Shown: piece after piece, positions 8,140-31,998 of the stretch
How positions within the stretch are numbered: position 1 is the stretch's first letter
Layout of the letters: each line of letters starts with the position of its first letter
Origin: an uncultured bacterium
GTDB taxonomy: Bacteria; Auribacterota; JACPWU01
Assembly (NCBI GenBank): GCA_964640155.1
Contig: CAZXEQ010000009.1
Coordinates: 7,961-39,960, forward strand
Length of the DNA stretch: 32,000 bases
Direction of reading: 5' to 3'
Program-made: the position numbers and the translations under genes
Notes under the pieces: generated by a model
Database searches by the model: none
Told to the model about the DNA's origin: nothing
Seen by the model: the letters and a program-made list of their open reading frames with translations, nothing else

Positions 8140-8293
8140 GGCTTTTCCCTCCCGCTCTTCGTATCTATTATATCAAGGATTACACTTCAGATCGAGGAAA
8201 GGATAGTAATCAGTGATTTAGATTTTGTATATAAACGTATGCATATTTTATAGATGCGGGTGCCACTTAATTATCAAATTATCTCAAAAATTG

Positions 8294-12542: not shown

Positions 12543-12558
12543 TTAAAGACCGTATTTC

Positions 12559-12641
12559 GTAGTTCGTAAATCGTAGTTAGCAAAAACGAAATACGAACTA
12601 CTGTTTTTCACGAATTGCGAATTGCTAACTACGAACTACTG
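12559..12641. repeat. Mosaic inverted repeats built on GTAGTTCGTA / CGTAGTTAG units, spanning the mqnA-mqnE spacer and the mqnE stop codon
   Basis: GTAGTTCGTA occurs forward at 12559-12568. Its reverse complement occurs at 12592-12601 and 12631-12640. CGTAGTTAG at 12572-12580 pairs with CTAACTACG at 12625-12633. Confidence 0.75.
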
Positions 12642-13722
12642 TAGTATAAATTGCATCTCTCTCCACAGGCTCTCGTCCTGCTTCTCGAATAAGCTTGATC
12701 AAATTGTCTCTGGTCAACGCATTATCTGTCTTTGCACCTGCATCATGATAAATTTTTTCTTCAATAACCGTGCCATCAATATCATCCGCTCCATAGGAAA
12801 GAGCAATCTGAGCCAATGCAGGTGTAAGCATAATCCAATAAGCTTTAATATGATTAAAGTTGTCCAACAAGAGTCGTGAAATCGCTAAAGTCTTTAAATC
12901 TTCAACTCCCGTCGTCCATCCCAATTTTCCCATTCGGTTATTTTCAGGATGATAGGCCAAAGGAATAAAACATCGAAAACCGTTGGTTTCGTCTTGAGCC
13001 TCTCGGAGATCCAATAAATGACGCACTCGTGCGTCGTATTTTTCAACATGACCATAAAGCATGGTTGCATTTGTTGGAATACCCAAACGATGCGCTGTTT
13101 TAGCCACTTCAAGCCATCTTGCACCCGTTGCTTTTTCACCACAAATTTTTTTGCGAATTTTCTCATCAAAAACTTCAGCTCCACCCCCTGGCAAAGAATC
13201 AAGCCCGGCTTGTTTAAAATCACTTAAAACTTCATAAGCCGATTTTTTATAAATTTGAGAGAAGAAATCGATCTCAACACAAGTAAAGGCTTTGATATGA
13301 AGACTGGGATAAAACTTTTTAATGGTACTTAACAAATCAATGTAGTACGGATAAGGAAGTTCAGGATGAAGTCCCCCAACCATATGAAGTTCGGTTAAAC
13401 CCTGATTCCAAACCGCTTCAATTTTTTTAAGAATTTGCTCTTTATTAAGCGTATATGCATCTGGATCTTTTAAATCTCTGCGGAATGAGCAAAACAGGCA
13501 ATCCACCGCACAAACATTGGTGTAATCAATATGAAGATTAATCACAAAATAGGTTTTATTACCGTTTTTTCTTTCTCGAACTTGATTGGCAAGCGCACCT
13601 ATTGCATTAACATCATGAGAATGAAACAAAGTCATTCCATCTTCAAAAGAAAGACGTTCGCCTTTTTCAACTTTGATTGCAATAGCTGACAACTCTGATT
13701 TTTGTGTTAGCAGTTCAAGCAT
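12625..13722 (-). CDS. mqnE: Radical SAM aminofutalosine synthase (MqnE-type)
   Basis: It has YFVINLHIDYTNVCAVDCLFCSF (CxxxCxxC), is a paralog of the mqnC-type gene, and has a GAGGA SD. Confidence 0.75.
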   Translation of the reverse strand: MLELLTQKSELSAIAIKVEKGERLSFEDGMTLFHSHDVNAIGALANQVRERKNGNKTYFVINLHIDYTNVCAVDCLFCSFRRDLKDPDAYTLNKEQILKKIEAVWNQGLTELHMVGGLHPELPYPYYIDLLSTIKKFYPSLHIKAFTCVEIDFFSQIYKKSAYEVLSDFKQAGLDSLPGGGAEVFDEKIRKKICGEKATGARWLEVAKTAHRLGIPTNATMLYGHVEKYDARVRHLLDLREAQDETNGFRCFIPLAYHPENNRMGKLGWTTGVEDLKTLAISRLLLDNFNHIKAYWIMLTPALAQIALSYGADDIDGTVIEEKIYHDAGAKTDNALTRDNLIKLIREAGREPVERDAIYTTVVRS

Positions 13723-13740
13723 ATATCCTCACGACAATAT

Positions 13741-13860
13741 TAAAAATCAAGAATCAAATATCAAAACGACAATGTAAAAATTAAGAAGATCCTCTTTTTT
13801 AGATTTTAAAATTTTTGAATTTTAATTTGTCATTTTAATTTTTGATTTTTGATCTTTGAT
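13741..13860. repeat. About 120-bp AT-rich imperfect palindrome between the UbiD-like gene and mqnE
   Basis: AATCAAGAATCAAATATCAAAA (13746-13767) pairs with TTTTGATTTTTGATCTTTGATT (13840-13861) at 19/22. Inner arms GACAATGTAAAAATT / AATTTGTC.. also pair. The centre is near the GATC at 13788-13791. Confidence 0.7.
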
Positions 13861-15306
13861 TTAAAATCCTAATTCTTTCCACATCCCATCTACTTTTGCT
13901 TTTACAGCAGCATCCATCACAATTTCATCAGGCCAATCCCGAGTAAACCCTTCTTCTTTCCACTTGCGTGTGGCATCAATACCCACTTTACTTCCTAAAG
14001 CAGGTAAGCGCGCAGCATGATCTAAAACATCTACCGGCCCATGCGTAAAAAGAAAATCACGTTCTGGATCAATGTGATTTAACGCCTTCCAAGCTACTTC
14101 CTTGACATCATGAACATTCACATCTTTATCTACGATAACAACTACTTTTGCGAAACAAAGTTGATTAAGGCCCCAAACAGCGCTCATCACTTTCTTAGCT
14201 TGCCCCGGATATCGCTTATCAATCGACATGATTAATAAATTATGAAATACGCCTTCTGCTGGCATATTCATGTCCACCAATTCTGGCAATTGCTTTTTAA
14301 GCAAAGGTAAAAAAATACGTTCCGTTGTTTTACCCAGAAAAAAGTCTTCTTGCAAGGGCTTTCCAACAATAATGGTTGGATAAATGGGATTCTCTCTCAT
14401 GGTCATTGCTGTCACATGAAAAACAGGGTATTGATCGGCTAATGAATAAAATCCTGTATGATCTCCAAAAGGTCCTTCTTGTCGCAATTCTGTAGGATCA
14501 ACATAACCTTCCAAAACAATTTGAGAATTGGCTGGAACTTCCAAATCAATCGTCTGACATTTCACCATTTCAACTGGCACATTCCGAATAAAACCTGCCA
14601 ACATCATTTCATCTACACCTTCAGGAAGAGGAGCTGAAGCTGAATAAATCACAGCGGGATCTGGTCCCAAAGCCACCGCCACTTCGACTCGTTTTCCAAG
14701 CGCTTTTGCCTTATGAAAATGAGCGGCGCCTCCCTTGTGAATTTGCCAATGCATTCCAATTGTTTTTTCATCAAAAATTTGAAGTCGATACATGCCATAA
14801 TTTGCAATTCCAGTCTCTGGATCTTTTGTAATCACGACAGGAAGTGTAATGTATCGACCTGCATCTTGAGGCCAACATTTCAAGGCAGGAATTTCAAAAA
14901 GGGAGAATTGATCTTTTTTAATAATTTCCTGGCAGGGACCTCGACGCACTGATTTTGGTTTTAATGCTCTCAAAGTTTGAAGCATGGGAAGCATTTGAAC
15001 CGTTTCCATAAAACCGGAGGGCATTTTGGGTTCCAAAAAAACATTCACACGTTCAGCCAATGCTTCAAGACTTTCAACACCTAAAGCCATTGCCATTCGC
15101 TTTTCTGTGCCAAAGGTATTAATTAAAACCGGAATGTTTGAACCTTTTACTTTTTCAAAAAGAAGCGCAGGTCCACCTGCTTTTGTCACACGATCCGTGA
15201 TCTCAGTAATTTCCAAAATAGGATCCACTTCTTGAGAAATTCTCTTAAGTTCTCCCTGTTTTTCCAAAGCTCTTATAAAATCGTTCAAATCCTGATATGC
15301 ATGCAT
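13861..15306 (-). CDS. UbiD-family decarboxylase (futalosine-pathway menaquinone decarboxylase type)
   Basis: 481 aa with full-length UbiD-like sequence (DLNDFIRALEKQGELKRI.., GPFGDHTGFY). It is the first gene of the mqn operon and has an AGGAGAGG SD. Confidence 0.85.
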   Translation of the reverse strand: MHAYQDLNDFIRALEKQGELKRISQEVDPILEITEITDRVTKAGGPALLFEKVKGSNIPVLINTFGTEKRMAMALGVESLEALAERVNVFLEPKMPSGFMETVQMLPMLQTLRALKPKSVRRGPCQEIIKKDQFSLFEIPALKCWPQDAGRYITLPVVITKDPETGIANYGMYRLQIFDEKTIGMHWQIHKGGAAHFHKAKALGKRVEVAVALGPDPAVIYSASAPLPEGVDEMMLAGFIRNVPVEMVKCQTIDLEVPANSQIVLEGYVDPTELRQEGPFGDHTGFYSLADQYPVFHVTAMTMRENPIYPTIIVGKPLQEDFFLGKTTERIFLPLLKKQLPELVDMNMPAEGVFHNLLIMSIDKRYPGQAKKVMSAVWGLNQLCFAKVVVIVDKDVNVHDVKEVAWKALNHIDPERDFLFTHGPVDVLDHAARLPALGSKVGIDATRKWKEEGFTRDWPDEIVMDAAVKAKVDGMWKELGF

Positions 15307-15437
15307 ACTAAAGCCCTCTCCTGTTTCCCACGAAGCTGTAAGTATGCTTGGTTAATCATAAAAAATCAAATATTAAGAAAGAAAATTTACAGAGATAATC
15401 CCGTATACAAAAGTGTGTTCTTATTAGCTAAGAAACG

Positions 15438-15511
15438 GGTCCTGCCACTCGTCAGCCCCACCGTGCTCACTAAAAGTTGCGCGCGGCGGGGCTCCCCGTC
15501 GAGTGTCACCC
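15438..15511 (-). repeat. GC-rich structured element, copy A (74-nt core, minus orientation)
   Basis: It is the reverse complement of 20776-20849 with one mismatch (73/74). The core is about 69 percent GC by hand count, in an AT-rich context. It is flanked by CAAAAGTGTGT (15408-15418) and ACACACTTTTTTG (15525-15537), which are inverted. Confidence 0.85.
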
Positions 15512-15574
15512 GTATTTGTAAAGGACACACTTTTTTGCACAAGATCCAAGAAATTCTTCATTCAATTCCACAAG

Positions 15575-15735
15575 TGAAAATGGGGTGACCCGACTGGGGG
15601 TTCCCCATCGAGCGCCAGCAAGCGTCGCCTAAAACCTGAGAATCCTCATTAAATGCCCTGCCGACGCTGACCCCACAGGGGCTATAACTACATGTGCCGT
15701 CGATGGGGGTGAGGAGGGGCAGGACCCCATTTTCA
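15575..15735 (+). repeat. GC-rich structured element, copy B (longer family member, plus orientation)
   Basis: It starts GGGGTGACC and ends GGCAGGACCCC, like copy C. About 25 nt at each end are homologous to A/C (22/26 at the 3' end). It is closed by TGAAAATGGGGT / ACCCCATTTTCA (12 bp). Confidence 0.8.
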
Positions 15736-15871
15736 TGAATTTTGGCAATCTCTACCATTGATTCATCTTGCTTTATGGCTCATCTTAACGTATAGAGTAG
15801 GAGTTCAATGCTGTTTTGGGATATAATTTTGTCTCTTTTGAGTCTCTTAACCCAAATTTTATGAGTCAACT

Positions 15872-16852
15872 ATGCATACAGAAATACTGAATGAACTTGA
15901 AGGCTTTATTGAAGAACAACTTCATTTGCTAAAGTCCGTTAAAGACTCTTGGCAGCCCAGCGATATTTTGCCAGACATGAGTGATGAATGCTGGCACGAA
16001 AAAGTTGAAGAATTACGCACAAAAACATCGAATTTATCCGATGAACTTCTCGTCGTCCTTATTGGGAATACCGTTACAGAAGAGGCCTTACCCTCTTATC
16101 AAACCTGGTTAAATCGTTTTGAAGGCATGAGCGATAAAACAGGTGTCAGCTCTAATCCTTGGTCTCTTTGGACAAGGGCTTGGACTGCTGAAGAAAACCG
16201 TCATGGTGAACTTCTTAATAAATACTTATATCTTTCTGGGCGAGTTAACATGCATGCGGTTGAAATCACCACACAAAATCTCATTAGAAATGGCTTTGAT
16301 GTACGATCCGGAGACAGTTTCTATAAAGCCTTGGTTTATGCTGCGTTTCAAGAAAGAGGAACAAAAATTTCTCATCGTAATGTAGGTTTATTGGCTGAAA
16401 AATGTGGTGAAACAACCTTGAGCAAAATGTGCGTTTTGATTGCAGGAGATGAAGCTCGACATGAAGAAGCTTACAAGAGATTTTTCGCCAAAATACTCGA
16501 ACTAGATCCTTCTCGAGCTCTATGTGCTTTTGCAGACATGATGAAACAAAAAGTCATCATGCCAGCCCGTCTCATGTCCGATGAAACAGATCGAGACTTA
16601 TTTAATCAATTCTCTGTCGTTGCACAGAAAATTGGTGTTTATACCATTCATGACTATGTTGAAATCATTGACCACTTGATTAATCTCTGGGGCATTCCAA
16701 CCCTTTCTACTTCTTCCCCAGAAAGTGCGCAAGCACAAGAATATCTTTGCAATTTGCCAGGACGGTATACAGGGAAAATTGAACGACTGGAAGAATCTTT
16801 GGCTAAACAACCCAGCAAATCTTTTCGATGGATATTTGATCGTTGCGCTTAA
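15872..16852 (+). CDS. Soluble acyl-ACP desaturase (stearoyl-ACP delta-9 desaturase family, di-iron)
   Basis: It has the WTAEENRHG and GDEARHEEAY di-iron motifs at the spacing typical of the plant/actinobacterial soluble desaturase family. Confidence 0.9.
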   Translation: MHTEILNELEGFIEEQLHLLKSVKDSWQPSDILPDMSDECWHEKVEELRTKTSNLSDELLVVLIGNTVTEEALPSYQTWLNRFEGMSDKTGVSSNPWSLWTRAWTAEENRHGELLNKYLYLSGRVNMHAVEITTQNLIRNGFDVRSGDSFYKALVYAAFQERGTKISHRNVGLLAEKCGETTLSKMCVLIAGDEARHEEAYKRFFAKILELDPSRALCAFADMMKQKVIMPARLMSDETDRDLFNQFSVVAQKIGVYTIHDYVEIIDHLINLWGIPTLSTSSPESAQAQEYLCNLPGRYTGKIERLEESLAKQPSKSFRWIFDRCA

Positions 16853-16876
16853 ACAATTAAATTTAAAAAATCAAAG

Positions 16877-18910
16877 CTAAGATGTTTTAATATTTATATT
16901 TGATTTTGTTTTTCTCCATCCTTCTTTCCATTTTCTAGGATCCAAACCTAAATCTCGACCCGTCAAACCCATTAAAGCCAAATGAGCATTTTCTCGCACA
17001 GAAGAATCAGGATCTTTTAAAACATCGATCAAAGATGGAACCGCCTTTTCATTTTGAAAAATCCCCAAAAGCAGTACGCAGGTGTATCTTACTTCTGAGT
17101 CAGGATGCTTCAAAAGTTTAAGTATCACATCAAAAGTGGCCTGATCTTTTTCAGTATTAATTTGTCCTAAATATTGCACTATTTTTTTTGCATCACTTTT
17201 AGGATTTTGTAATGTTGCTAAAAGTAGTGGGAGTCGTGCTAACTCACCAAAATTTTCCAAAGCATCTTTAGCGCTCTGCTGAACTTCTAACACAGGATCG
17301 TTCAAGAGTTCTATAAGGCTTGAAATACTGATTGGATCACGAACGGACCCCAAAGAAACGGCTGCATGGCTTCTCACCTTAGGAAATGGATCTTTTAAAG
17401 CTTCTACCAAAGCGCTCACACTGCCTTCTGCTCTTAAAAGACCTAAAGATAAAGCTGCATTCGCACGAACCTCTGCATCTTCATCTTTTAAATGCATCAT
17501 CACTTGAGGAGCAACAGAGGGATCCTGTAAAAGCCCTAAAGCTAACACCACATGTTTTCTGACTTCACTATCTTCATCTTGAATATGCGAAATCAATATT
17601 TCTTTAGCCCGTGTATCCTTTAAAATTCCAAGAAGAATTGCTGCGTGACGTCGGACCAAAGGATGAGCATCATTTAAAGCTTTTAAAGTTAATTCAAAAC
17701 TCTTTTTTTCAAGTTTTCCTTTTAATTCCCGATCACGCAATTTTTGATTTAACGTAATCACCGCTTGAGCCCTGATCAGCGGATCTTTACTCTGCAAAAC
17801 CCGAAAAATAGGATCTTCGGATAATCTCTCCAATAAAATTTCTCTTTCTTGTTGGACTCCTGTTAATTTGACCTGAGCTTCATGCAAAATCTTTTTATAT
17901 TCCTTTTGAGCACGTTGATGCTGAGCGACCAAATAAAGAGTCCAAACAAGACCCATTACAAGCATAATCGCTAAAGCCCAGAGCACCGCCTGATAACGAC
18001 ATAACTTTCGATACAACCTGATCGTCAAGGGCGTGGGGCGTGCCCAAATGGGATCCCCCATTTGAAAACATTTTAAATCTTCTACTAATTTTTGAGCAGA
18101 GGGATATCGATTTTTGGGATTTTTTTCAATGGCCTTGAGAATGATCACTTCTAAATCCTTTGGAATCTTAGAATTAATCAAATGAGGGGCTCGAGGTTCT
18201 TCTTCCAAAACCTTTTTCAATAAAGCCAAATGATTTGCAGCCTGAAAAGGAAGCTCTTTTGTAAACATTTCATACATTAAAATCCCCAGAGAATAAACAT
18301 CAACCAAATTGGTTGATGGCTCGTCGGGGTCCGATCTAGCCTGTTCCGGCGACATATACGCTGGGGTTCCCATGATTGTTCCATCAAGAGTCATAAGCGT
18401 TGCATTTTCTATTTTGGCCAAACCAAAATCCATGATCACAGGGCGACCTGTGGGATCCAGCATGATATTTGAAGCCTTAATATCACGATGAATGGTTCCA
18501 TGTTCATGAGCAAAAGCAAGCGCTTCCGCTAATTTCTCAGAAATTTCAACTGCTTTTGAAAAAGGTAATCCTCCGGCTGAAAAAACTTGTTCCAAAGTTT
18601 GTCCTTCAATATATTCCATGGCAATAAAAGGACCTGTCTGAGTTTCTCCATAGTCATAGACAAGAGCAATATTGGGATGATTCATTCGAGCCGCCGCAGC
18701 AGCTTCATTGCGGAATCTTTTGACAAAGGTATGATCTTGCGCCAAATGCGAGGGAAGCACTTTTAGAGCAACTTTACGTTCCAAGCGAGGATGGTAGGCT
18801 TCGTAAACAAGCCCCATTGCACCCTGGCCAATTTGACGAATGATTTTATAATTTTCGATTTGTTCAATAGAAGGATTTTTATTTTCTTCAGGAGGAGAAG
18901 AATCTGTCAT
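16877..18910 (-). CDS. Ser/Thr protein kinase with a TM segment and C-terminal HEAT (PBS-lyase-type) repeats
   Basis: It has the GQGAMGLVY P-loop, VALKVL, HRDIKASNIML, DFGLAK and GTPAYMSPEQ. A hydrophobic segment (AVLWALAIMLVMGLVWTLYLV) follows. There are at least 8 repeats of the D..VR..AA.ALG type. Confidence 0.9.
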   Translation of the reverse strand: MTDSSPPEENKNPSIEQIENYKIIRQIGQGAMGLVYEAYHPRLERKVALKVLPSHLAQDHTFVKRFRNEAAAAARMNHPNIALVYDYGETQTGPFIAMEYIEGQTLEQVFSAGGLPFSKAVEISEKLAEALAFAHEHGTIHRDIKASNIMLDPTGRPVIMDFGLAKIENATLMTLDGTIMGTPAYMSPEQARSDPDEPSTNLVDVYSLGILMYEMFTKELPFQAANHLALLKKVLEEEPRAPHLINSKIPKDLEVIILKAIEKNPKNRYPSAQKLVEDLKCFQMGDPIWARPTPLTIRLYRKLCRYQAVLWALAIMLVMGLVWTLYLVAQHQRAQKEYKKILHEAQVKLTGVQQEREILLERLSEDPIFRVLQSKDPLIRAQAVITLNQKLRDRELKGKLEKKSFELTLKALNDAHPLVRRHAAILLGILKDTRAKEILISHIQDEDSEVRKHVVLALGLLQDPSVAPQVMMHLKDEDAEVRANAALSLGLLRAEGSVSALVEALKDPFPKVRSHAAVSLGSVRDPISISSLIELLNDPVLEVQQSAKDALENFGELARLPLLLATLQNPKSDAKKIVQYLGQINTEKDQATFDVILKLLKHPDSEVRYTCVLLLGIFQNEKAVPSLIDVLKDPDSSVRENAHLALMGLTGRDLGLDPRKWKEGWRKTKSNINIKTS

Positions 18911-18973
18911 TTCTTCATTCTTTCCAATGTCATTCGTTTTAACTCCAACTTCATCATAACGATGAACTGAATT

Positions 18974-20662
18974 CTATTCTACTTTTATCAATCCCAAAGT
19001 AATGTCATCTGCTTGGGCTTCATTCTGGGCGTGTTCAGTAATTCTATCAAGAATTTTTTCCATAATGATATGTGTTTTTTGATTCCCGATCTGAGTAATG
19101 ATTTCTTTCAAGGCTTCAAGGAATTTTTCTTTTCCATAAGATTGCTGTTTGGAATCTTGGGCTTCCTCCACACCATCTGTATATAAAATAACTTGATCCC
19201 CTTTTTTTAGGGACAAAGTATATTCTTCCGGCATTTCATCATCCGTCCATTTTGAAAAACCCAAAGCAATGCCCTTTGGAGAAAACTCATGCAATTGAAC
19301 GTCTGGACCTCGATATACAATCAAAGGTAAATGTCCTGCCCTAGAAAAAGTAAGGGTATTCTGTTTTACATCGAGAAAAGCCAAAATAGCGCTGATAAAC
19401 ATATCTTGTTTCATATCTGGAACCAAAAGATTGTTCACTTCTTTTAAGAGGCCTGCCGTACTCGTCGCACCCAAGGCTCTGGACTTCAATGTCGAACGAA
19501 ACATCGCCATCACCAAAGCACCTGGAACCCCCTTACCACTTACATCTGCAATCACCAAAGCTAATTTTTCAGGGCTTACCCAAAACCAATCATAATAATC
19601 TCCGCCTACTTCTTGGGCTGGCAAACTTCTAAAAGAGAAATCAAAACCTTCTATTTTTGGAAAAGTACGGGGTAATAAAATCTGCTGAATTTCACGAGCG
19701 ATCTGTAATTCATGTTTGATGCGCTCCTGATCACGAATCTCGCGGTAAAGCCTAGCATTTTCTAATGCAATCGCCGCTTGACTTGCAATCGCTGTTAAAA
19801 GCTTTAGATCGTCTTCTTCAAAATGACTGATTTTAATCAAACTATCACAATAAATAAGTCCTAAAATCTGATTTTTAATAGCAATGGGGACACACATGGC
19901 AGATTTAATCCCATACGCATAAAAACTCTCTGCATTCTTAAAACGATCATCCAAACCTGTATGGGCACAAATCACACCCACGTGTTCTTTCAAAACCGTT
20001 TCAACAATGCTACGACTGATTGCAATGGGAGAATATCCTTTTTTTTGCTCTGAACGTTTTACAATTCGAGGGACTAATTCTTGTGTTTTTTCATCTCGGA
20101 ATAAAATCACGTAGCGATCCGCATGAATCACCTCCATCACCATATCTACAATTTTTACAATTAAATTTTCTTCATTTAAAATCGAATTAAAAACATTTCC
20201 TGATTTATAAAGGATAGAAAGATTTTTTGCCGTTTTCTTAAATTGATCCAATTTCAAACTGCGTCCGTCTATATCTAAAAATGTAGAATGCTTACAATCT
20301 AAAGAGCTCGTGACACGTGTTTGAGGAGCTTCTTCTAACACAATGGAAACTTCTTCTTTAGATAAGGATTCTAAAGAGGAATTTTCCGATACTATTTTCA
20401 AACGTGTGTCTCCTACAACAATTTCATCCCCCTCTTTAATCACACACTGCGTTACCAGCTTCCCATTGACATAGGTACCATTTGAACTATCCAGATCTTG
20501 AAGAAAATATTGATCTTTTTGTTTTTGAATACGCACATGAACCCGAGAAACTCTGGGGTCTTGTAAAGGCAATTGATTGGTAGGATCTCTGCCAATTGAA
20601 AGAGTTTCTCCCAGAGGAAAAACATAATCCTTCTTAAAACCTTGCATGACTAAAACATTCAT
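18974..20662 (-). CDS. FHA-GAF-PP2C (SpoIIE-type) protein phosphatase
   Basis: It has an N-terminal FHA domain (GRDPTNQL..VSRVHVRI..LQDLDSSNGTYVNG), a central GAF-like region, and C-terminal GGDYYDW / ADVSGKGVPGAL / DGVEEA PP2C motifs. The start could instead be the ATG at 20647. Confidence 0.9.
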   Translation of the reverse strand: MNVLVMQGFKKDYVFPLGETLSIGRDPTNQLPLQDPRVSRVHVRIQKQKDQYFLQDLDSSNGTYVNGKLVTQCVIKEGDEIVVGDTRLKIVSENSSLESLSKEEVSIVLEEAPQTRVTSSLDCKHSTFLDIDGRSLKLDQFKKTAKNLSILYKSGNVFNSILNEENLIVKIVDMVMEVIHADRYVILFRDEKTQELVPRIVKRSEQKKGYSPIAISRSIVETVLKEHVGVICAHTGLDDRFKNAESFYAYGIKSAMCVPIAIKNQILGLIYCDSLIKISHFEEDDLKLLTAIASQAAIALENARLYREIRDQERIKHELQIAREIQQILLPRTFPKIEGFDFSFRSLPAQEVGGDYYDWFWVSPEKLALVIADVSGKGVPGALVMAMFRSTLKSRALGATSTAGLLKEVNNLLVPDMKQDMFISAILAFLDVKQNTLTFSRAGHLPLIVYRGPDVQLHEFSPKGIALGFSKWTDDEMPEEYTLSLKKGDQVILYTDGVEEAQDSKQQSYGKEKFLEALKEIITQIGNQKTHIIMEKILDRITEHAQNEAQADDITLGLIKVE

Positions 20663-20666
20663 AGGG

Positions 20667-20696
20667 GAAACTTTCGATATAAAGTTTCTACGAAAC
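20667..20696. promoter_or_regulatory. GAAAC/GTTTC half-site cluster (operator-like palindromes) just upstream of the phosphatase gene
   Basis: GAAACTTT-cgatat-AAAGTTTC (20667-20688) is a perfect 8-bp inverted repeat. It overlaps GTTTC-tac-GAAAC (20684-20696). Confidence 0.35.
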
Positions 20697-20775
20697 CATT
20701 ATAGCGTTTTTAATTCTACTTTACTATCAAAATGGGGATTGTGGATCCTGTTAAGAGTGTGTTTTTTATATATGT

Positions 20776-20849
20776 GGGTGACACTCGACGGGGAGCCCCG
20801 CCGCGCGCAACTTTTAGTGAGCACGGTCGGGCTGACGAGTGGCAGGACC
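20776..20849 (+). repeat. GC-rich structured element, copy C (74-nt core, plus orientation)
   Basis: GGGTGACACTCGACGGGGAGCCCCGCCGCGCGCAACTTTTAGTGAGCACGGTCGGGCTGACGAGTGGCAGGACC. It is flanked by perfect inverted AAGAGTGTGTTTTTT (20753-20767) and AAAAAAACACACTCTT (20861-20876). Confidence 0.85.
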
Positions 20850-21028
20850 TACTACTTTTCAAAAAAACACACTCTTATCTCCAGCACATCAACAATAAAA
20901 AATAAAAATCAGATATGTTTTTAGATTTCAAATCACTGTTTTTAATAGTCAATTTCAAAACATTATCTTACAATTTCTCTAACATCGTGTTACGCACTTC
21001 TCACAACGCATCACACAGAGCGAATTTT

Positions 21029-29490: not shown

Positions 29491-31998
29491 TCACGGATTG
29501 GGATCGGAGGATAATGCAGGATCTGCATCAATCGTATTATTGGTAGAGTTAACTAAAGTTCCTCCTGGAGGATTGGCGCCCCCCGTCCAATAGTTATTTT
29601 CTGCATCGATGGTGAAACCTGCAGCAGCACTGGTATCACTCATATCAAATTCACCATTGCTATCTGAATCATTTCCCGTCAGAGAATTATTTCCTGGACT
29701 AGAAAGTCCTCCACCTCCAAAGTCAATCGTGTAAGTTGGAACACTGGCACTCAGTGAAAACAAAACACCATCCCCAACATTGTTTCGAATGATGTTTCCT
29801 TCTCCATATAAAATTAAAGCATCTCCAGCCCCTGTCCCTGCAGTGATGGTATAAGAAAACCCATCTTCTCCATTATTAGTTACAGTATTGGTGATGGCAC
29901 TGACGGTAACATCATCAGGTGCTGTTGTGGTCAAAACAATTCCCGAAAGAGAATTAGCACCTGTAACATTGTCGGTTAAAACGGTACTGACACTTCCACT
30001 GCTGCCAGAAACCAAGTTGTTAATCAGAAGCCCATAACCAGTATCGGCATCATTACCTGTATTCCCTGTCACCGTAATATTGATATTATCATTGAGAGAT
30101 GCATTACCGATATATATGTTATCCCCCGAGTTACTATTAGCAGTATTGGTACTTACAACTCCCACAATGGCACCAGAACCACTGCCAGAAACCGAGTTGC
30201 TGATCAAAAGGCCAAAACCACCCGTACTACCATTTGCTATGTTTCCAGTCACCGTGACATTGATATCATCATTCAAAGATGTATTAACCATAAAGATATT
30301 ATTATCTGCGTTACCCGTAGCCGTATTGGTACTTGTAAAAACCTCAATAGCTCCAGAACCACTCCCCAGAACTGTGTTGCCCATCCCAATCCCCATATAA
30401 CTACCACTATTATTCGCTATATTCCCTGTCACGGTGACATTGATATCATCATTGAGAGATGTATTTATGATAGATATATTCATATTTGCGTTTCCAATAG
30501 CAGTATTAGTACTTATAAAATTTGAAATTGACCCTGCACCACTTCCAGAAACTGTGTTCGTAATCTCAATCCCCAAATTAGACAGACTATTGCTTGCCGT
30601 ATTTCCAGTCACGGTGACATTGATATCACCATTAAGAGATCGATTACGGATAGATAGATTAGTGCCCCCATTATTGCTAGCCCTATTATCACTCATAACT
30701 CCCACAATTGATCCAGAACCACTCCCTGAGACTGTATTAGTGATGGAAAGTCCGAAACCACCTGCATTATTATTATTTAGAAGGTTCCCTGTAGCAGTGA
30801 TAGTGATATTGTCATTAAGCGAATTAAGAAAAACAAAGAAATTACTCGTCCCATTGAGTTCCGATATATTATTACTAATATCAGCATTAATTGCGCCCGA
30901 ACTTGATCCTGAAACTGCCCCTGACACATAAGAACCAAAGCTTGTAGTACTAGAACTCGTTTTATTTCCGGTCACTGTCACATTGAGATCCGCATTCAGA
31001 GAGGTTAAAGTCATAGAAAAGTTACTGGTTACATTGTTACTAAAATTATTCCTATTGATGAGAGCATTCACTTCTCCAGAACCAGTTCCACCCACAACTG
31101 CAGAAATAGCAGCACCATCTGCTAACCCAGTGAGGCCTCTATTGTTATCCATGGTAAGTGTAATATCCGCATCTTGAGAAGTGAGCGTCACAGATAAATT
31201 AGTTAAAGTATTACTTTCCATACGATTGTCACTGATAGTAGCATTGATTGCTCCTATGGTAGTTGCAGCAACTTCGCTATTGATACGAATCCCATATCCT
31301 CCTGAAGTATGGGACTGGTTATCTGTCACATTTAATTCAATATTTCCTCCTGTCGTATCAACATCCAACACCACATTTGAAGAAGTATTGGATTCAAGAA
31401 CATTATCAATAACATTTACAGTAGTGGGTGCACGCGAACCAGAGTTAACCCATATACCACGATTAGCATTGTTTGAAACTGTGTTTCCACGGATGGTTGC
31501 CGTAAAGGAATCATAATCATTTGTACTAATACTAATTCCATCAAATGCATTTCCTGTAGCGGTGTTATCTAAAATAGTTGTGTTAAATGAAGAACTCAGT
31601 GTCCCTAAACTAATAATTCCTATCCCTTCAGCTACATCATTCTGGCTGATGGTATTATCGGAAATTGTTGAAGTAAAATCTGTAACACTATCTGCAGCTA
31701 AAAAAACTCCTATAGAATTAGCATGAATATAATTCTCACAACTGATTTCTAAATTGGTTTTGTTCTCAGCGTAAATACCTATGCGCTTGACGTTAAAAAG
31801 TTGTCCAGCTACAGAACGAAATTGATTAGCACCCCCCATATCCGTATTAATCACTTCCATACCCCAGATCTTGGTATTATCTGCCATGGTAATAGAGGGA
31901 CCATTACTTCTTCCATCTACAATAGGCCTAATCCCACTCTCTATACCATAGTTCACACATCCACTTCCCCATAGAATCACATTCTCTTTGAGGGTCAC
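29491..31998 (-). CDS. Large right-handed beta-helix (PbH1-type) repeat protein, C-terminal 835 aa (N-terminus outside the window)
   Basis: The ORF stays open to the window edge. It has repeated N.T.TGN / N(T/S)VSGSGSGAI units, is rich in Asn/Thr/Ser/Gly, and has a terminal ENNYWTG motif common at the end of PbH1 arrays. Confidence 0.8.
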   Translation of the reverse strand: MTLKENVILWGSGCVNYGIESGIRPIVDGRSNGPSITMADNTKIWGMEVINTDMGGANQFRSVAGQLFNVKRIGIYAENKTNLEISCENYIHANSIGVFLAADSVTDFTSTISDNTISQNDVAEGIGIISLGTLSSSFNTTILDNTATGNAFDGISISTNDYDSFTATIRGNTVSNNANRGIWVNSGSRAPTTVNVIDNVLESNTSSNVVLDVDTTGGNIELNVTDNQSHTSGGYGIRINSEVAATTIGAINATISDNRMESNTLTNLSVTLTSQDADITLTMDNNRGLTGLADGAAISAVVGGTGSGEVNALINRNNFSNNVTSNFSMTLTSLNADLNVTVTGNKTSSSTTSFGSYVSGAVSGSSSGAINADISNNISELNGTSNFFVFLNSLNDNITITATGNLLNNNNAGGFGLSITNTVSGSGSGSIVGVMSDNRASNNGGTNLSIRNRSLNGDINVTVTGNTASNSLSNLGIEITNTVSGSGAGSISNFISTNTAIGNANMNISIINTSLNDDINVTVTGNIANNSGSYMGIGMGNTVLGSGSGAIEVFTSTNTATGNADNNIFMVNTSLNDDINVTVTGNIANGSTGGFGLLISNSVSGSGSGAIVGVVSTNTANSNSGDNIYIGNASLNDNINITVTGNTGNDADTGYGLLINNLVSGSSGSVSTVLTDNVTGANSLSGIVLTTTAPDDVTVSAITNTVTNNGEDGFSYTITAGTGAGDALILYGEGNIIRNNVGDGVLFSLSASVPTYTIDFGGGGLSSPGNNSLTGNDSDSNGEFDMSDTSAAAGFTIDAENNYWTGGANPPGGTLVNSTNNTIDADPALSSDPNP
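30060..31340 (-). repeat. In-frame tandem repeats of about 180 bp (60 aa) inside the beta-helix gene, about 7 units
   Basis: The motif C(C/A)(T/G)GTCAC(C/G)GTGACATTGATATCA.. recurs near 30063, 30245, 30425 and 30605. Degenerate copies occur near 30785, 30968, 31150 and 31325. Confidence 0.8.

Follow-up and report, generated by a model that had tools for sequence, protein, structure and literature searches.

Rickettsia palindromic elements (RPEs) are repeats of about 150 bp, confined to Rickettsia and encoding family-specific conserved peptides, which lie scattered between genes and often in frame within unrelated housekeeping genes, where they add a short peptide (PMC10969869). Here we describe three elements, named A, B and C, within a 32-kb stretch of contig CAZXEQ010000009.1 from an uncultured bacterium (the window). 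They are members of a hitherto uncatalogued family of small, structured insertion elements whose range extends from bacteria of the candidate phyla radiation (CPR) to the window's own lineage. A, B and C are probably copies of small (~70-190 nt), GC-rich, hairpin-forming, non-autonomous insertion elements in AT-rich genomes, similar in kind to RPEs. Ogata et al. (2000) reportedly found that the RPE hairpin is maintained through compensatory changes. GC-rich palindromic mobile elements are also found in the very AT-rich mitochondrial genomes of yeast, where the GC clusters and 'byp' elements vary between strains and occasionally lie inside coding regions; the byps are bypassed by the ribosome. 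MITEs (miniature transposable elements with inverted repeats) and the repetitive extragenic palindromes REP/REPIN, mobilised by RAYT proteins, resemble the present elements in being short, non-autonomous and hairpin-forming and in varying in presence among relatives, and a further likeness is the presumed handling of REPINs as folded single strands.

The cores of A, B and C start with GGGTGAC and end with GGCAGGACC(C). Even with three mismatches allowed, the 20-nt 3' motif that they have in common is found at three places in the window, where 0.01 would be expected by chance. The sequence-only reading had noticed that the closing pairs at these ends vary by copy yet stay complementary, which we confirmed: GTGGGT (20774-20779) pairs with ACCTAC (20847-20852) in C, one pair being G.T; ACGGGT pairs with ACCCGT on the minus strand in A (15513-15508 / 15440-15435); and GTGAAAATGGGGT (15574-15586) pairs with ACCCCATTTTCAT (15724-15736) in B through 12 Watson-Crick pairs and one G.T. 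Equally real are the inverted outer arms, which form 16 perfect base pairs in C (TAAGAGTGTGTTTTTT, 20752-20767, with AAAAAACACACTCTTA, 20862-20877) and join AAAAGTGTGT to ACACACTTTT in A (Table 1).

A and C represent a single 124-nt unit in two copies, with 85% complementarity between 15411-15534 and 20753-20876. The core of A, which ends in GGCAGGACCC, is built from P1 (ACGGGT/ACCCGT), P2 (CACUCG/CGAGUG, all Watson-Crick in the A/C subtype) and P3 (GCCCCGCCG/CGGUGGGGC) with the apical loop AACUUUUAGUGA. In the long subtype represented by B, P3 opens with UCCCCAUCGA/UCGAUGGGGG and encloses a variable interior of 87 nt; this interior and the 3' tail (CATGAATTTTGG) are homologous to two copies, L005 and L030, of the metagenome-assembled genome (MAG) JACPWU01. 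The predicted folding energies are -53.6 kcal/mol (z -5.4) for A and -52.2 kcal/mol (z -5.1) for C, and both elements remain exceptional against shuffles whichever strand is folded (z = -5.1 to -6.5); B taken whole does not (z = -1.0). A covariance model made from a seed of seven trimmed copies, with A and C outside the seed, recovered all copies including these two, scoring A at 57 bits (E 2.7e-12), B at 74.7 bits (E 6e-17) and C at 42.6 bits. It added two copies without the exact motif (L068 1310-1397 and L108 215-346) and no further copies in the 32-kb window or in 143 kb of loci.

The consensus, read 5' to 3', starts with P1 (GGGU/ACCC plus copy- or subfamily-specific extensions), followed by an asymmetric loop with GA opposite GCAGG and by a P2 of 6 bp, C-N-C-G-A-S with S-G-A-G-K-G, in which the central GA/GA makes tandem sheared pairs. 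The tandem G.A is kept in 35 of the 40 copies and is replaced by U:A and C:G in the A/C subtype and in L005. A second asymmetric loop or bulge (U-GGGG(G)-N opposite UGA) then leads to P3, which opens CCCC(C)/GGGG(G) and has a variable terminal part of 20 to more than 130 nt. In Saccharibacteria the apical loop itself is conserved over loci and species, and the A/C-type copies are flanked alike, by AT-rich sequence on the 5' side (TTTTAT..ATGC) and by YACUU(U) on the 3' side. Identification of the loops as a kink-turn, C/D box, attC site, G-quadruplex or triplex, judged by eye, was unsupported by the conserved positions. Two divergent forms were also seen, a variant with an extra hairpin between the P2 5' strand and the G-run (L084 579-686) and a 35-nt derivative from which P3 is deleted (L094 1136-1171, GACUG-AGGGUGAGGAG).

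Over 42 distinct copies, pairing is found in 83.7% of cells compared with 65% in shuffles, and the covariation score of 0.34 stands well above shuffles (0.089, with 0/500 reaching it) and slid controls (0.03-0.07). The outer P2 pair is CG in 27 copies, AU in 9, GU in 3 and GC in 1, the inner one CG in 30 and GC in 9, and P3 has changes on both sides in 8 of its 10 pairs. The 10 positions outside GGGT/ACCC pair at 5.25/10 in 40 members, compared with 3.91 +/- 0.22 for permuted flanks (maximum 4.6 among 2000 permutations). The covariation of closing stems claimed for the three elements is therefore a property of the family at large, and the maintenance of a nucleic-acid structure is supported by these alignments. 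G.U/U.G pairs outnumber A.C/C.A pairs by 18 to 5, which together with the G.A pairs indicates that the GGGUGAC strand is the one that folds.

This strand-specific pairing bias would also suit genes or modules of a structured RNA with a function of its own, either a protein-bound small RNA or a catalytic RNA, transcribed from the GGGUGAC strand; the copies would multiply and move, yet each would be retained by selection, either because the RNA is of use or because it promotes its own spread by way of an RNA intermediate. Consistent with such an RNA are the tandem sheared G.A pairs and invariant asymmetric loops conserved over phyla, the conserved apical loop of the Saccharibacteria, the A/C-type flanks, which could be promoter and terminator remnants, and the ten-fold better conservation of orthologous copies relative to flanking coding DNA (see below). 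The 3' strand (C)UGANGAG, with tandem G.A against GA opposite, furthermore recalls the hammerhead core, as does the scattered multi-copy distribution across phyla. However, promoter and terminator scans gave no match at A, B or C, no Rfam ribozyme or other RNA family matched even at E <= 10, and in the majority of the in-gene copies, which lie antisense to the host mRNA, the folded strand would have to be transcribed separately in the antisense direction; moreover, a sister species manages without A, B and C. A hammerhead ribozyme was rejected, as only the UGANGA/GA half is present, stem III and GAAA are missing, position 3 is G in most copies and the counterparts of N7 and A14 covary as a Watson-Crick pair. 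We therefore regard a structured-RNA gene as a rather unlikely explanation.

The distribution of the family was determined by scanning one genome per species for GGSTGASGAGKGGCAGGACC. This census is anchored on the exact 3' motif, with decayed copies outside the sample; taxonomic labels of MAGs may be wrong, and gene calls are simple open reading frames (ORFs) with a Pfam check for cited cases only. The genome scan for the 20-nt 3' motif returned 48 loci, of which ~17 are true copies: the high-GC matches are chance or coding sequence without the 5' motif, and the low-GC matches all have GGGTGAC upstream. The low-GC hosts are Saccharibacteria, Gottesmanbacteria, Levyibacteriota and other Patescibacteria (several CPR phyla), together with one MAG labelled Eisenbacteria, two labelled Pseudomonadota, and the MAGs JACPWU01 (labelled 'Chlamydiae') and JAYRIK01 (labelled 'Auribacterota'). 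Run on metagenomes, the scan gave ~27 more copies, chiefly compact 70-81-nt forms. Public genomes and metagenomes supplied ~40 relatives, and no copy was found in viral contigs, plasmids or phages. Near-identical cores occur at separate loci of one MAG (L007/L029) and two copies lie in L068, with 1-4 exact-motif matches per MAG.

Scans against Rfam 15, made with both the gathering and a permissive threshold, matched none of the window, A/B, the CPR-type copies and the sister-species loci; in the whole window there were 0 gathering-threshold matches, with only chance matches below 21 bits on A and B and none on the CPR-type copies. A literature search on the motifs and on in-frame palindromic elements in CPR bacteria gave nothing relevant beyond RPE and MITE reviews, and exact look-ups of the window desaturase and of the proteins P0125 and P0132 found none on record. 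The two L068 copies form an inverted pair of one subfamily, ~470 nt apart: one (1310-1397, minus) is inside the LeuRS gene and the other (1863-1940, plus) just past its stop codon, an arrangement which echoes the inverted A/B pair of the window.

The placement of copies in genes was deduced from the ORF census, translations and Pfam scans. In nine host gene families the host frame runs uninterrupted through the element, and other copies lie between the genes of operons (Table 1); there is no orientation rule and no gene-family association among the copies. The host frame stays open in all of the in-gene copies, an argument for their being translated. An intron, spliced or bypassed element was rejected on the same ground and because most copies are antisense. 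A search with the concatenated element peptides against 5.8 billion proteins found only 11 carriers, among them a GatA (P0128) with the element at the GatA site in sense orientation, whose element peptide is near-identical to that of a GT4 glycosyltransferase (P0130). In a public GT2 protein (P0125) the annotated N-terminus is an A/C-type element, the 5' region having probably been mis-called. Between orthologous GatA copies there are compensatory changes and, within the element, a shift of frame, and hence the nucleic acid, rather than the peptide, is conserved. In one GatA gene (L036) a 14-bp perfect extension of the stem takes in the conserved LYGIP codons, with their complement on the poorly conserved side.

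The family thus resembles RPEs in comprising small palindromic repeats without transposase coding capacity that lie both between genes and in frame in unrelated housekeeping genes. There are also differences: the present elements measure 70-190 nt, are GC-rich within AT-rich genomes, have a single core, marked by asymmetric loops and tandem G.A, in hosts ranging from CPR bacteria to a Planctomycetes-Verrucomicrobia-Chlamydiae (PVC)-type lineage, and are read in several frames and in both orientations. Membership in RPE families 1-10 is unlikely because the hosts are CPR and PVC-type bacteria. The yeast GC clusters and byps differ in being organellar, unrelated in sequence and, for the byps, bypassed, whereas the present in-gene copies are open in the host frame. 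In the comparison with MITEs, only GGGT/ACCC is universal at the ends and no long conserved terminal inverted repeat was found; subfamily arms (AAAAGTGTGTCC...) are present in A, C and L108, no parent insertion sequence was found, and among the few junctions examined C, A and L108 show no direct target-site duplication. REPs and REPINs differ as well, the present core being conserved across phyla and not species-specific, with ends GGGTGAC / GGCAGGACCC, no GTAG or CGTC tag, in-gene copies and 1-4 matches per MAG.

Comparison with relatives of the window's organism provided filled and empty sites. A and B occupy the spacer of a divergent gene pair, a minus-strand UbiD-family gene that heads a futalosine-type menaquinone (mqn) cluster and a plus-strand acyl-ACP desaturase gene. 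C occupies the spacer between a minus-strand FHA-GAF-SpoIIE phosphatase gene, accompanied by a Ser/Thr kinase gene, and the plus-strand gene of the amylo-1,6-glucosidase or glycogen debranching enzyme (GDE). JAYRIK01 is a sister species, with BLAST segments 87-93% identical to the window and desaturase and GDE proteins 97% identical. Its UbiD/desaturase spacer (L049) is 323 bp long and without A and B, and its phosphatase/GDE spacer (L106) has 57 nt in place of 183 nt in the window (C with flanks of ~9 and 50 nt). In L107, from a more distant relative with proteins 85% identical, the phosphatase/GDE spacer is in the JAYRIK01 state, without C, and therefore C, arms included, is derived. If elements had inserted into pre-existing hairpins, as the sequence-only reading considered, palindromes should be found intact without the core. 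None was seen: no outer arms without a core are present in the DNA available, and the empty C site lacks the arms too, hence the arms travel with the element. The accompanying argument that direct target-site duplications cannot yield inverted flanks was right.

Loss as well as gain was observed. JAYRIK01 (L031) has a full A/C-type copy, antisense between two minus-strand genes, at a place where the window keeps only a 12-nt stump, 65 nt being missing between two GCCACT repeats. A loss bounded in this way is the signature of a hairpin deletion, the 6-nt repeat being most readily taken as microhomology used in the deletion. JACPWU01, too, is related to the window's organism (GDE 78% identical), which explains the resemblance of its copies L005 and L030 to B. 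Cross-phylum transfer of B between 'Chlamydiae' and 'Auribacterota' was accordingly rejected, JACPWU01 and JAYRIK01 both being relatives of the window's organism under different labels. A further JACPWU01 copy (L108) lies antisense after the UbiD stop codon and combines a long-type core and variant loops (GGGTGGC, GGACAGG) with outer arms as in window A, in a 21-bp perfect inverted repeat.

In place of A and B, the JAYRIK01 spacer holds an unrelated 132-nt GC-rich double hairpin (L049 4339-4470; -62 kcal/mol, z -7.8), of which one hairpin is an 18-bp perfect stem (CCCGCUACGAGGUAAUCC/GGAUUACCUCGUAGCGGG); Rfam gave no match to it, and nowhere in the DNA available does a second copy occur. The UbiD/desaturase spacer seems to collect different structured inserts. 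Gene content is also variable near GDE, where small extra genes missing from the window lie between GDE, PmbA and TldD (L107 7680-8036; L108 12080-13402 and 15127-15528), encoding a 23S_rRNA_IVP/bAvd-type four-helix protein, PDDEXK_3 and AAA_14/DUF4143.

The sequence-only reading had noticed that all three elements point at the adjacent downstream gene and had suggested that they serve the UbiD/mqn operon, the desaturase and GDE as 5' leaders or cis-regulatory RNAs, possibly with selection for a long P1 in the RNA. Each element does lie upstream of a gene start on the same strand, and P1 covaries. The pointing is literally true and at the same time uninformative: A, B and C all sit in divergent spacers, where any element faces a start codon on either strand, and so the orientation argument carries no weight. 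The three downstream genes are unrelated in function, and the relatives, far from being sense copies in the 5' untranslated regions of a coherent gene set, have unrelated neighbours and lie in both orientations, antisense inside operons and in frame inside coding sequences, a distribution that the sequence-only reading itself had named as refuting its proposal. Nor is the element conserved upstream of an orthologue, since A, B and C are missing from the JAYRIK01 spacers, and C from L107 too. The sister species keeps the genes together with promoter-proximal blocks of 70-115 nt by each start codon, between the elements and the genes (Table 1), and the UbiD, desaturase and GDE genes would evidently be expressed without the elements. 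A sigma-70-like site (20946-20974) within the GDE block places the probable GDE promoter downstream of C. An intrinsic terminator (GC-rich hairpin plus U tract) was also rejected, the scan being negative at A, B and C and the in-gene copies ruling out such a role for the family. A leader function is thus scarcely tenable, and any effect of A, B and C on adjacent genes would be a by-product of the landing site. For the window, three genes are thereby freed of a regulatory annotation that was tempting but wrong.

Present in several copies that vary from one sister species to the other and that are indifferent to gene, frame and strand, the elements fit a non-autonomous mobile palindromic element, the explanation that we favour. 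The strand-specific pairing and conserved non-canonical positions suggest that a folded single strand is the recognised form. Propagation would then proceed via such a strand (single-stranded DNA, ssDNA, or RNA), with the polarity GGGUGAC to GGCAGGACCC, and a putative trans-acting factor would recognise it by its shape and conserved loops. Integration would leave the target unduplicated and may involve microhomology; events of this kind are suggested by the GCCACT junction and possibly by an A-rich match in the right arm of C. The complementarity of the arms, seen as covariation, would be kept since only foldable copies propagate, and intrastrand templated repair of quasi-palindromes probably perfects and extends the stems too. 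Within genes, only in-frame, stop-free insertions would survive.

Several observations weigh against this explanation. The RNase HII element (83 nt, in three Saccharibacteria) is 95-99% identical compared with 68-75% for the flanking coding DNA, the identity falling at the element edges, so that orthologous copies are about ten-fold better conserved than the surrounding coding DNA. Such conservation is unpredicted for a tolerated selfish insertion and points to a nucleotide-level function, gene conversion or homing. Furthermore, both element orientations are found at one GatA site and two core types within one set of arms, which together with the RNase HII data and the compensatory and frame changes in GatA keep alive readings as a functional RNA/ssDNA site or as continual homogenisation. 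The arrival of C (183 nt for 57 nt) and of A and B (378 nt for 132 nt) resembles segment replacement and not clean insertion. We identified neither a transposase nor a reverse transcriptase nor any other partner, the few junctions examined showed no target-site duplication, the only family-wide terminal repeat is 4 nt, and copy number per genome looks low in a census tied to the exact 3' motif, in which decayed copies are unsampled. The conserved asymmetric loops and G.A pairs, finally, look like an RNA or protein recognition module.

Another possibility is that the core is an undescribed functional RNA/ssDNA module, either a small RNA with catalytic or self-mobilising activity or a hairpin recognised by a widely distributed enzyme. 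We consider this decidedly unlikely; if true, selection would keep copies intact even in CPR housekeeping genes, which would explain the roughly ten-fold excess conservation. Alternatively, the hairpins could be chromosomal DNA sites used by the host, few per genome and not primarily mobile, for recombination, priming or protein loading on a folded single strand, after the model of integron attC sites or single-strand initiation signals. The architecture is indeed attC-like, with a strand-specific hairpin, conserved ends that pair, a spacer left unpaired in the centre, non-canonical or extrahelical positions in a second stem and a terminal structure whose length varies widely, and the low copy number, high nucleotide conservation and independence of gene orientation and reading frame agree with this model. 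However, the RYYYAAC/GTTRRRY (R''/R') boxes are missing in all aligned copies, cassette arrays are missing and the elements are not at the 3' ends of arrayed cassettes, no integron integrase is nearby, no partner protein was identified and the sites differ between sister species. A host-used DNA site is hence improbable.

In-frame selfish palindromic DNA in essential genes has so far been a Rickettsia curiosity. A second family, unrelated in appearance to RPEs, would show the phenomenon to be general in small, AT-rich genomes. The family also provides a searchable model for correcting gene annotation (spurious ORFs, extended N-termini), which helps to explain insertions in CPR housekeeping proteins and to seek the factor that recognises a hairpin with tandem G.A pairs. 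Within the window, plus-strand ORFs at 15232-15588 (118 codons) and 20646-20924 (92 codons) traverse A and C because the GC-rich cores have no stop codons, and they are likely to be mis-annotated as genes.

Table 1. Features of the window (positions in the 32-kb stretch) and placement of related copies (locus identifiers; orientation relative to the host or neighbouring genes)
Feature	Position or locus	Strand or orientation	Remarks
Element A, whole unit, A/C subtype	15409-15534	minus	outer arms, AT-rich spacers and core
Core of A, GGGTGAC...GGCAGGACCC	15437-15511	minus	
3' outer arm of A, ACACACTTTT on element strand	15409-15418	minus	partner 15525-15534
5' outer arm of A, AAAAGTGTGT on element strand	15525-15534	minus	
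Element B, whole unit, long subtype	15574-15745	plus	13-bp closing stem, core and conserved 3' tail to ~15745
Core of B	15583-15727	plus	P2 CCGAC/GGAGG with tandem G.A, then bulge UGGGGGU
Element C, whole unit, A/C subtype	20752-20877	plus	16-bp perfect outer arms
Core of C, GGGTGAC...GGCAGGACCT	20776-20850	plus	
Remnant of fourth copy, GCGGGTGCCACT, 5' end only	8256-8267	plus	sister species has full A/C-type element there
Conserved block upstream of UbiD-family gene, between A and start codon	15307-15378	minus	kept in sister species
Conserved block upstream of desaturase, between B and start codon	15757-15871	plus	kept in sister species
Promoter-proximal block upstream of GDE, downstream of C	20927-21028	plus	kept in sister species without C
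GatA / amidase	L036, L053, L103	antisense	in frame
Topoisomerase I	L018	antisense	in frame
LeuRS	L068, L035	antisense	in frame; one site in both
MnmA	L059	antisense	in frame
RNase HII	L016, L070, L072	antisense	in frame; one site
16S rRNA dimethylase (KsgA, RrnaAD)	L009	antisense	in frame
PfkB kinase	L064	antisense	in frame
GT4 glycosyltransferase	L063, L088	sense	in frame
PabC-PabB protein	L104	sense	in frame
Between nuoE and nuoF	L015	antisense	intergenic
Between atpA and atpG	L029	antisense	intergenic
Between two aminoacyl-tRNA synthetase genes	L101	antisense	intergenic
Between two HhH-GPD genes	L100	antisense	intergenic
Between TPP enzyme gene and SDR gene	L060	antisense	intergenic
Between purA and purB	L012	sense	intergenic
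After pheS (intergenic)	L007	sense	

Other repeats and genes of the window were noted in passing. Two AT-rich inverted repeats (13736-13856, 47-nt arms, 70%; 12549-12642, 38-nt arms, 74%) lie in short spacers of the mqn cluster and are palindromes of another kind than the GC-rich elements. Between the element-bearing spacers, on the minus strand (16877-20662), a Ser/Thr protein kinase with HEAT repeats adjoins the FHA-GAF-SpoIIE (PP2C-type) phosphatase. An 835-codon minus-strand ORF (29491-31998) contains four tandem 180-nt (60-codon) repeats of 68-72% identity at 30059-30774, and its predicted product is a repeat-domain protein.

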